This document shows, piece by piece, positions 28,521 to 30,605 of a DNA stretch of 64,000 nucleotides (positions within the stretch are counted from its first letter, which is position 1; every line of letters begins with the position of its first letter). The stretch lies in NCBI RefSeq assembly GCF_013122565.1, contig NZ_CP053258.1. One strand, given 5' to 3'. The notes under the pieces were generated by a model that saw only the letters and a list, made by a program, of their open reading frames with translations, was not told where the DNA came from and did not search any database. The translations under genes and the position numbers were made by a program. Source of the DNA: Escherichia coli. GTDB lineage: Bacteria > Pseudomonadota > Gammaproteobacteria > Enterobacterales > Enterobacteriaceae.

Positions 28521-29471
28521 TTACAGCCAGTTCTTCCGCTTAAAGTACAGATACGGTGCCAGGCCCGCGAGGATCATAAAGATAATCGCGCCTGGGTAGC
28601 CGAAGCTCCACTTCAGTTCTGGCATAAACTCAAAGTTCATCCCGTAGCTGGAAGCAACCAGCGTTGGCGGCAGGAACACGACGGATACCACCGAGAAAAT
28701 TTTGATGATGCGGTTCTGCTCGATGTTGATAAAACCCATTGCCGCCTGCATCAGGAAGTTCACCTTCTGGAACAGGGATTCGTTATGCGGCAGCAGGGAT
28801 TCGATATCTCGCAGGATTTCACGCGCCTGCTCCAGTTGACCACCCGGTAAACGCGCCTTACGCACCAGGAAGTTGAGCGCACGCTGGGTATCCATCAGAC
28901 ACAGGCGCACTTTCCAGCCGATATCTTCCAGTTCCGCCAGCGTGGAGAGCGCCTCGTCGTACTCATCGCCCTGATGCCCTTCCATAATCACCCGACTCAA
29001 CTGCTCCAGGTCGCTATAGATATTTTCAATTTCATCTGCCAACTGTTCGATTTTGGTTTCGAACAGATCCAGCAGCAGCTCGTAGGCGTTACCGTCTACC
29101 ATCGACTGGCTACGAGCACGCATACGATACAGACGAAAAGCGGGCAGTTCACGCTCACGCAGAGTAAACAGACGACCATCACGGATGGTAAATGCCACAG
29201 TGGAGTTACCGGCGTGATCTTCCGCATCTTCAAAGAAGAAGAAGGAGTGAATATGCAGGCCGTCGTCGTCTTCAAAGAAACGTGCCGATGCTTCGATGTC
29301 TTCCAGTTCCGGGCGGGTTGCCAGGCTCTGGCCAAGTTCAGATTGTACGCGCAGTCGCTCGTCGTCGTCCGGTTCGACAAGATCAATCCATACTGCATTT
29401 ACAAGGGGTTGTGACTCTTCGACTTCCAGCCGGGTCAGTCGGTTATTTTCCAGTTGAAATGCGCTCAGCAT
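28521..29471 (-). CDS. corA: Magnesium/cobalt/nickel transporter CorA
   Basis: Trimmed to [17 protein letters not shown], 316 aa; C-terminal GMNF motif. Confidence 0.95.
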
Positions 29472-29840
29472 GACCGGGACTCCCAATGCTTAAAATATCG
29501 GACAGTTCGGTGGGCACACAGAAACAAATTGGGTTTCAGACCATTAAACAGCCTGACTCAGCGCGACGGGAAAAATTGAGGTCGCTGACAACCGCTAAGG
29601 CTATCAGCAAAAAGGGATAGCCTTAGGAGTTGATCCTGGATGACAGGATAGTGAGCCAGTATCTACTGGGTGTGTCCAAGGCGAATGTCCTCTTAGAGTG
29701 ATCGTGCGCGCATGTTACGCCAGCAAAATTTTGCCGTCAACACGCAACAGAACACCACAGAACAATAGTTGAACTTCGCGCTTTTTGGTACTCGTCAAGG
29801 TCGCTAACAGGATAAAAAAATCCCACATCCAGGACCTATA

Positions 29841-30605
29841 ATGGCGCATCGGCTACTCATTGGTAAAGGAATGATCACCTTGAATCTCAAACGGATTTTT
29901 CTCGCCCTCACCTTACTTCCCTTGTTTGCTGTTGCCGCTGATGATTGCGCACTCTCAGATCCGACGCTGACCGTACAGGCGTATACCGTTAATCCTCAAA
30001 CAGAGCGGGTGAAAATGTACTGGCAAAAAGCCAATGGCGAAGCGTGGGGAACGTTACATGCTCTGCTGGCGGAGATGAATAGTCAGGGTCAGGTGCAGAT
30101 GGTGATGAACGGCGGCATCTATGATGAAAGCTATGCGCCACTCGGTTTGTACATCGAAAACGGTCAGCAGAAGGTGGCGTTAAATCTCGCTTCAGGTGAA
30201 GGGAATTTCTTTATCCGTCCTGGCGGCGTGTTTTATGTCGCGGGAGATAAAGTCGGCATCGTTCGTCTGGATGCCTTTAAAACCAGTAAAGAGATTCAGT
30301 TTGCGGTGCAGTCAGGGCCAATGTTGATGGAAAACGGCGTAATTAATCCGCGTATTCATCCCAACGTCGCCTCACGCAAAATTCGTAACGGTGTTGGGAT
30401 TAATAAACATGGGAACGCCGTGTTTTTGTTGAGCCAGCAGGCGACAAATTTTTATGATTTTGCCTGTTATGCCAAAGCGAAACTGAACGTTGAGCAGTTG
30501 CTTTACCTTGATGGCACGATTTCACATATGTATGTGAAAGGAGGCGAGATCCCCTGGCAGCGTCATCCTTTTGTCACCATGATTGCCGTCGAGCGGAAAG
30601 GTTAG
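29841..30605 (+). CDS. yigE: Uncharacterised secreted protein YigE
   Basis: 254 aa with N-terminal signal peptide (LLPLFAVAADD). Confidence 0.8.
   Translation: MAHRLLIGKGMITLNLKRIFLALTLLPLFAVAADDCALSDPTLTVQAYTVNPQTERVKMYWQKANGEAWGTLHALLAEMNSQGQVQMVMNGGIYDESYAPLGLYIENGQQKVALNLASGEGNFFIRPGGVFYVAGDKVGIVRLDAFKTSKEIQFAVQSGPMLMENGVINPRIHPNVASRKIRNGVGINKHGNAVFLLSQQATNFYDFACYAKAKLNVEQLLYLDGTISHMYVKGGEIPWQRHPFVTMIAVERKG

Follow-up and report, generated by a model that had tools for sequence, protein, structure and literature searches.

The stem-loop at positions 29595-29626 of the window (the whole 64,000-nucleotide stretch of Escherichia coli DNA analysed here) is almost certainly stem-loop C of the corA leader, which acts as the ON (anti-termination) arm of a Rho-dependent attenuator coupled to translation. 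The hairpin is an already known element, and its recognition amounts to a sequence-only rediscovery of a known regulatory RNA helix. It forms half of a switch through which intracellular Mg2+ and translation govern, via Rho-dependent attenuation, the expression of the main Mg2+ channel of enteric bacteria, CorA; this switch has been established experimentally in Salmonella (2015, 2017) and in E. coli (2024).

The hairpin reads ctaaggctatc-agcaaaaagg-gatagccttag; 29595-29605 and 29616-29626 form 11 perfect Watson-Crick pairs around a loop of 10 nt, which confirms the perfect stem-loop reported in the preliminary description. A repeat search extended the arms to 17 nt each (29589-29605 and 29616-29632); in corA-sense RNA, the extended hairpin at 29589-29632 is CAACU-C-CUAAGGCUAUC / GAUAGCCUUAG-C-GGUUG, comprising 16 pairs (one of them U·G) and a single C·C mismatch. 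Its predicted folding energy was -20.4 kcal/mol (z = -6.0), and none of 200 shuffled sequences folded equally well. Perfect hairpins of at least 11 bp (loop of 3-20 nt) occur twice in the 64-kb window, the corA-leader hairpin being one of the two, compared with 0.3 per window in dinucleotide shuffles, and the exact pattern was absent from 100 shuffles. A dispersed palindromic repeat of the REP/BIME type was considered and rejected, since such a repeat should be present in many copies and the hairpin arm is single-copy in the window; across 5,425 E. coli genomes, a 701-bp query centred on the hairpin had a median of one match per genome. The other perfect hairpin of at least 11 bp is located at 47448-47477 (AACGCCTGCTC-ttattacg-GAGCAGGCGTT), 4 nt past the stop of an open reading frame at 46845-47444 (+); the seven A's upstream of it are seven T's on its 3' side on the minus strand, and it looks like an ordinary intrinsic terminator, possibly a bidirectional one.

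A comparison of 29300-30000 with the Rfam models (cmscan, E-values up to 10) returned chance matches only, with no Mg-sensor or M-box; the best of them, mir-76, scored 20.9 bits against a gathering score of 75 (E = 0.13). The corA leader (29469-29705) has no family in Rfam 15, though it is experimentally characterised and conserved in Enterobacterales, and is a candidate for curation.

Over 29300-30000 the window matches E. coli chromosomes at 100% identity, and the region was found in 5,425 of 5,426 complete genomes. Gene coordinates were transferred from a stretch of identical sequence annotated in RefSeq, by adding 27799 to each locus coordinate. Using the RefSeq start of yigE, the spacer between the divergent corA and yigE genes measures 369 bp rather than the 354 bp first given, and the hairpin lies 124-155 nt upstream of the corA ATG, in line with the earlier estimate of about 125-155 nt; the yigE ATG, on its other side, is about 215 bp away. 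The corA promoter was the only sigma-70-like site detected when both strands of 29440-29880 were scanned, and it is nearly invariant in the orthologous upstream regions of Enterobacterales. Leader nucleotides are numbered here as n = 29706 - coordinate, with a transcription start that follows from the promoter spacing and the published numbering and is uncertain by 1-2 nt; on this scale the hairpin occupies +80 to +111 of the corA leader, about 80 nt downstream of the promoter. The oligonucleotide oFM4, used to construct a Ptet fusion, joins the tet promoter at GAGCAC followed by GATCACTCT, the native sequence being GCGCAC followed by GATCACTCT (PMC11552253). The numbering in the E. coli study is not self-consistent when laid over the sequence: its oligonucleotide names corA41-71txR and corA68-99txR place +1 at 29703 (an offset of 2), and its termination sites G216-U220 fit GCAUU at 29489-29485 and place +1 at 29704, while the Salmonella numbering fits 29705. 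The positions of all features are compiled in Table 1.

Table 1. Positions of the corA leader elements and flanking features in the window (nt, leader numbering with +1 at 29705)
Feature	Coordinates	Strand	Details and basis
corA coding sequence	28521..29471	-	Mg2+/Co2+ channel, the regulated gene; A of the ATG at 29471; RefSeq
yigE	start 29841	+	RefSeq
corA promoter	29712..29740	-	-35 TTGACG 29740-29735, 17-nt spacer, -10 TAACAT 29717-29712; motif scan
corA transcription start	29703..29705	-	A29705, 7 nt past the -10 hexamer, is +1 in the Salmonella numbering
corL (ysgD) upstream open reading frame	29623..29679	-	UUG 29679-29677 (+27), 18 codons, UAA 29625-29623 (+81 to +83); RefSeq CDS
Stem A, 5' strand	29676..29682	-	nt 24-30, GCCUUGG, including the corL UUG; partner nt 80-86 (OFF); 7 pairs
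Stem-loop C, core (the hairpin)	29595..29626	-	nt 80-90 with 101-111; loop nt 91-100, CCUUUUUGCU; folding, published mutations
Stem-loop C, full	29589..29632	-	nt 74-117; lower helix CAACU/GGUUG plus core, mismatch C79·C112; folding, covariation
Stem-loop B	29583..29609	-	nt 97-123, OFF competitor; uses the stem C 3' arm (nt 101-107, 113-117); predicted -16.0 kcal/mol
Stem-loop D	29559..29587	-	nt 119-147, ON with C; pyrimidine-rich loop ACCUCAAUUUUUCCCGU; minimum-energy fold
Published rut region	29531..29617	-	Salmonella nt 89-177, approximately E. coli nt 89-175; PMC5314796
Stem-loop E	29536..29556	-	Salmonella nt 152-172, E. coli approximately nt 150-170; M19, M24 and M20 at offset -2
In vitro Rho-dependent termination sites	29484..29494	-	U211, G216-U220; PMC11552253; placed via GCAUU 29489-29485, uncertain by 1-2 nt

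The upstream open reading frame corL is annotated as ysgD and is translated as (M)DTPSRYWLTILSSRINS followed by the stop. The oligonucleotide that was used to mutate the corL start codon changes TTG to AGG at exactly the ysgD TTG (PMC11552253), and therefore ysgD and corL are one open reading frame; moreover, YsgD was detected as a tagged, translated small protein in an independent study. The UAA of corL is formed by bases 2-4 of the 5' arm of stem C. Among the aligned orthologous leaders (described below), the start codon was UUG in 79 of 79, the frame had 18 codons in 74, and the stop fell at the same base of the 5' arm in 78. No runs of regulatory codons were evident in corL. Neither this reading frame with its stop in the 5' arm, nor the competing pairings A and B, nor Rho-dependent attenuation had been noticed in the preliminary description.

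Nucleotide-level correspondence with the published mutations carries the identification of the hairpin. The Salmonella corA leader adopts either stem-loops A and B or stem-loops C and D, with corL overlapping stem A; the B conformer exposes the rut site and leads to Rho-dependent termination, and efficient translation of corL favours B (Kriner & Groisman 2017, PMC5314796). In that leader, the substitutions M1 (G84 G85 C86) and M2 (G105 C106 C107) each break stem-loop C and in combination restore it, M1* (G24 C25 C26) restores A, and M7 (T97, C99), M5 (G121, G123) and M6 (C143, C145) define B and D (PMC5314796). With +1 set at 29705, each of the 13 nucleotides of M1*, M1, M7, M2 and M5 finds an identical base in the window, at offset 0 only; the two nucleotides of M6, which bring the mapped total to 15, fit at offset 0 and also at -2. 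The GGC of M1 corresponds to 29622-29620 and the GCC of M2 to 29601-29599, within the two arms of the hairpin; M1* maps to the 5' strand of stem A, M7, M2 and M5 to stem B, and M5 and M6 to stem D. Eight further Salmonella mutation sets fit at offset -2 and the corA start codon at -4, which points to small indels 3' of stem D. The original structure probing of the Salmonella corA leader was reportedly that of Kriner & Groisman in 2015, which reaches us second-hand through later papers.

The E. coli mutants of Vezina Bedard et al. (2024) lead to the same helix. The ON-state mutant carries the changes CAACTC to GTTGTG and GGTTG to ACAAC (PMC11552253); applied to the window, these edits make stem C a perfect 17-bp helix and remove its alternative partners. 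In the OFF-state mutant, the 3' arm is changed from GATAGCC to GACACGG and corA expression is severely reduced (PMC11552253); this edit destroys the 3' arm of stem C and keeps stem B.

Folding of the leader was consistent with two mutually exclusive states. The minimum-energy folds of the 237-nt leader (z = -4.2), whose start is inferred, and of nt 1-160 both contained stems C and D, which counts in favour of the RNA reading in the preliminary description. Enforcing A and B gave -44.9 kcal/mol compared with -51.7 kcal/mol for the fold with C and D, a cost of about 7 kcal/mol. When nt 66-96, approximately the footprint of a ribosome at the corL stop, were blocked, the predicted fold flipped from C to stem-loop B. 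The first YC cluster of the rut region, U89 C90 C91, coincides with the top of stem C and the beginning of its loop, and the tracts at nt 89-100 (the C loop) and nt 124-140 (the D loop) are pyrimidine at 11 of 12 and 13 of 17 positions, respectively. Stem-loop B together with the following CCUCAAUUUU (29582-29610, minus strand) was flagged as terminator-like by a consensus scan, although the published mechanism is Rho-dependent; in vitro, about 24% termination was reported without Rho, at downstream sites (PMC11552253).

A long-range helix, CUGGCUC/GAGUCAG, pairs 29653-29659 with 29553-29559 (nt 47-53 with 147-153) and encloses an inner hairpin and the region of C, B and D. Both the minimum-energy fold for E. 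coli and the RNAalifold consensus contain it, and four of its seven pairs are invariant in the 79 leaders, the other three varying slightly. A passage of the Salmonella study mentions a possible long-distance pairing that competes with stem E in that leader (PMC5314796).

These data agree with the published two-state model, set out here for a leader transcribed from the minus strand with a start near 29705. Nucleotides 74-90 can pair either downstream with nt 101-117, forming C, or, through nt 80-86, upstream with nt 24-30, forming A, and nt 97-107 can alternatively pair with nt 113-123 to form B. Once C is formed, D would form as well, and the pyrimidine-rich rut tracts would be held within the C and D hairpins; with the tracts so held, Rho should load poorly, RNA polymerase should pause less near the start codon and corA would be transcribed. 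Efficient translation of corL to its UAA would place a ribosome over the 5' arm of stem C and allow the 3' arm to fold into B, whereupon the rut tracts would be exposed and Rho would terminate transcription about 100 nt downstream. A poorly initiating or lagging ribosome would leave the 5' arm free, so that C and then D could form first. At high intracellular Mg2+, corL is translated more and corA is expressed less. We infer that occupancy of the corL stop by the ribosome is the physical step that prevents C.

The published function of the leader agrees with such a switch. In E. coli, repression between 20 and 50 uM Mg2+ is conferred by the leader and not by the promoter: corA promoter fusions showed no Mg2+ regulation, and the leader conferred regulation behind the tet promoter (PMC11552253). 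Rho and NusG terminate transcription at U211 and G216-U220, and in the Rho R66S mutant the occupancy of RNA polymerase in the open reading frame increased (PMC11552253). Abolishing corL initiation raised corA expression, an AUG start codon lowered it, and corL translation rises with Mg2+ (PMC11552253). In Salmonella, where the rut region spans nt 89-177 with its first YC cluster at 89-91, stem-loops C and D also suppress a pause of RNA polymerase at the corA start codon (PMC5314796). A 2025 review counts corA among the Rho attenuators mediated by upstream open reading frames. The two conformers, the Rho dependence, the effect of corL and the response to Mg2+ are thus results of others. The ON-state mutant had lower, not higher, expression at low Mg2+ (PMC11552253), and therefore stabilising C does not simply raise corA.

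The present analysis contributes the recognition of the hairpin as stem C, a fold prediction that switches from C to B, and the conservation and covariation of stem C, which were determined across Enterobacterales. One genome per species with CorA was sampled, giving 80 loci, of which 79 leaders (72 distinct) were aligned and one, that of Serratia sp. Ag1 (L072), was left out; the genera covered were Escherichia, Citrobacter, Enterobacter, Klebsiella, Kosakonia, Serratia, Pectobacterium, Dickeya, Yersinia, Erwinia, Pantoea, Hafnia and Edwardsiella. In the 72 distinct leaders, stem C was 96.8% paired, compared with 13-46% when the partner was slid by 1-3 columns. Double changes were observed at four pairs of C, namely C74-G117 to U-A (five distinct sequences), U81-A110 to G-C, U87-A104 to C-G and U89-A102 to C-G, with 10 double-change cells against 1.7 expected. 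Among 500 column shuffles of stem C, none reached its covariation score or its count of double-change cells; over all the observed values, the number of shuffles that equalled them was 0 to 2. Four of the 16 pairs never vary and four depart by mismatches only, so that covariation lends C modest support, chiefly through the lower helix and three pairs of the core. The covariation analysis that had been proposed for Enterobacteriaceae yielded, in these relatives, high pairing, compensatory changes at four pairs and wobbles specific to one strand.

The competing structure was conserved too. In the 72 distinct sequences, the A and B pairing was 98.9% paired and the seven pairs of stem A 99.0%. The common substitutions are compatible with both conformers: A104G makes a U·G pair in C and a G·U pair in B, and G117A is accompanied by C74U in C and makes a U-A pair in B. 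In 20 of the 72 distinct sequences a U·C mismatch takes the place of U81:A110, since the stop codon fixes U81, its first base, and A110 lies free in the B loop. The RNAalifold consensus of the 79 leaders contained stem B and not C, which, with the conservation of C, is the pattern expected of a bistable region. Given this family consensus and the U81:A110 mismatches, covariation alone would therefore not single out C. Taken together, the comparison adds to the published work that the switch, the UUG start and the stop within the stem are kept from Escherichia to Yersinia, Erwinia and Dickeya.

In Yersinia aldovae (L071:949-1107), a natural variant, the corL UAA is replaced (CACGAAGG), corL is seven codons longer with a UGA in the 3' arm, and the compensating changes U81G and A110C turn stem C into a perfect 17-bp helix of -30.7 kcal/mol. 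Four leaders, from Serratia silvae and Pectobacterium spp. (L058, L064 and L065) and from Serratia sp. Ag1 (L072), carry G105C in the 3' arm (GAUACCC); in the first three this breaks C86:G105 and makes both stems weaker, C at about -10 kcal/mol and B at about -12 to -13 kcal/mol, and the switch may be tuned differently in the G105C lineages. In stem D, one double change was found at each of the three pairs of an inner register (columns 131-133 with 152-154), which is not the register that M5 and M6 define in the published work. Covariation in the leader is clearest, and stronger than in stem C, in a small hairpin within corL, UCCUG...CAGGA at 29634-29650 (nt 56-72), in which U-A is swapped to A-U in 28 sequences and CCUG/CAGG changes to CCCG/CGGG and CCUA/UAGG.

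The preliminary description had left two readings side by side, an RNA element in the corA leader and a protein-binding palindrome. The first is upheld by the promoter about 80 nt upstream, by the minimum-energy fold, by the compensatory and strand-specific wobble changes in Enterobacterales and by the published stem C. The second, in which the sequence is a double-stranded DNA operator for a dimeric regulator of the divergent corA/yigE region and the RNA hairpin is incidental, is very unlikely. A perfect 11-bp palindrome in E. coli, placed in the spacer between two divergent genes and highly conserved, would suit an operator; however, a site some 80-110 bp beyond the corA start and about 215 bp short of the yigE ATG is atypical for one, and the symmetry is kept as RNA pairing and not as a DNA palindrome. 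On the corA-sense strand, 93 cells (8.1%) of stem C are G·U and 4 (0.3%) are A·C, so that pairing stands at 96.8% for the sense RNA, 89.0% for the antisense RNA and 88.7% for a DNA palindrome. The 93 G·U against 4 A·C cells therefore indicate that pairing is kept on the corA-sense RNA strand only. Each arm is additionally constrained by its alternative partners in stems A and B, and the Mg2+ regulation that came from the leader behind the tet promoter was absent at the corA promoter itself (PMC11552253). The same asymmetry of wobble pairs, favouring the minus strand, speaks against an element of a plus-strand transcript, such as a yigE 5' leader or an antisense RNA, instead of the corA mRNA. 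The core stem is perfectly Watson-Crick in E. coli and would fold in such a transcript too, but no promoter-like site for the plus strand was present in 29440-29880 and the 5' arm holds the stop of the minus-strand corL in 78 of 79 species, leaving this reading with hardly any credibility.

A strong hairpin in a leader also brings to mind a Rho-independent terminator or attenuator. Neither strand has a U-run after the hairpin (its 3' flank is GCGGUUGUCAGCG), as the preliminary description had judged, and the terminator scan gave no call on it; the published termination sites, moreover, are some 100 nt farther downstream and require Rho and NusG (PMC11552253). The chance that the hairpin is an intrinsic terminator is accordingly negligible. 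As a calibration, the sequence-only reading had picked a functional RNA element and had correctly excluded a terminator. A further proposal is compatible with the switch, namely that stem C additionally serves as an RNase III entry site in the corA 5' UTR, so that the ON conformer would be cleaved and degraded. According to passages of papers citing Lim et al. 2012, the corA 5' UTR is cleaved by RNase III, which determines the half-life of the mRNA; no local duplex in the leader is longer than stem C, with its 16 pairs around one mismatch; and the ON-state mutant, with its perfect 17-bp stem C, is less expressed (PMC11552253). On the other side, a stem of about 22 bp is needed according to a passage from the laboratory of Lim et al., and stem C is shorter; longer composite helices in the full-leader fold could serve instead. 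We regard an entry site at stem C as doubtful.

Returning to the attenuator, the near-invariant position of the corL stop within the 5' arm (78 of 79) would allow a sharper version of the model, in which the sensed step is the dwell or release of the ribosome at the UAA, rather than its elongation speed, and stem C is also the RNase III entry site; this combination is improbable. If it held, RNA polymerase would read through the ON conformer and the same conformer would be degraded preferentially, and the lower expression of the mutant with stabilised C would be explained. Even then, the UAA-dwell and RNase III readings would be refinements of the known switch and not a new kind of element.

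Related logic operates in other leaders. The mgtA leader of Salmonella and E. coli, with its upstream frame mgtL, likewise responds to Mg2+: a short reading frame lies within a stem A, an A and B conformer and a C conformer exclude each other, and in Salmonella Mg2+ acts on Rho-dependent termination by way of mgtL translation. Gene and sequence are different, however; mgtL depends on proline and acidic codons and mgtA is additionally controlled by PhoP at its promoter, whereas corA is regulated through its leader alone, in response to intracellular Mg2+. In ribosome-mediated attenuators of the trp type, the place of a ribosome on a leader-peptide frame decides between overlapping hairpins, and the corA hairpin has the part of the anti-terminator; the output in corA is Rho loading at an exposed rut site, in place of an intrinsic terminator hairpin with a U-run. 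In the tnaC and speFL Rho attenuators, the stop codon of an upstream frame adjoins a rut site and a ribosome there controls the access of Rho; a stalled ribosome in those leaders masks rut directly and prevents termination, whereas efficient corL translation promotes it by remodelling the RNA structure.

The closest known system is the element itself: the hairpin shares with stem-loop C of the Salmonella and E. coli corA leaders the gene, the position at +80 to +111, the mutated bases, the accompanying stems A, B and D, the corL reading frame and the edited helix. The differences from the Salmonella leader are confined to the E. coli numbering, which is shifted by 1-2 nt, and to the length of the E. 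coli leader, which is 2-4 nt shorter 3' of stem D.
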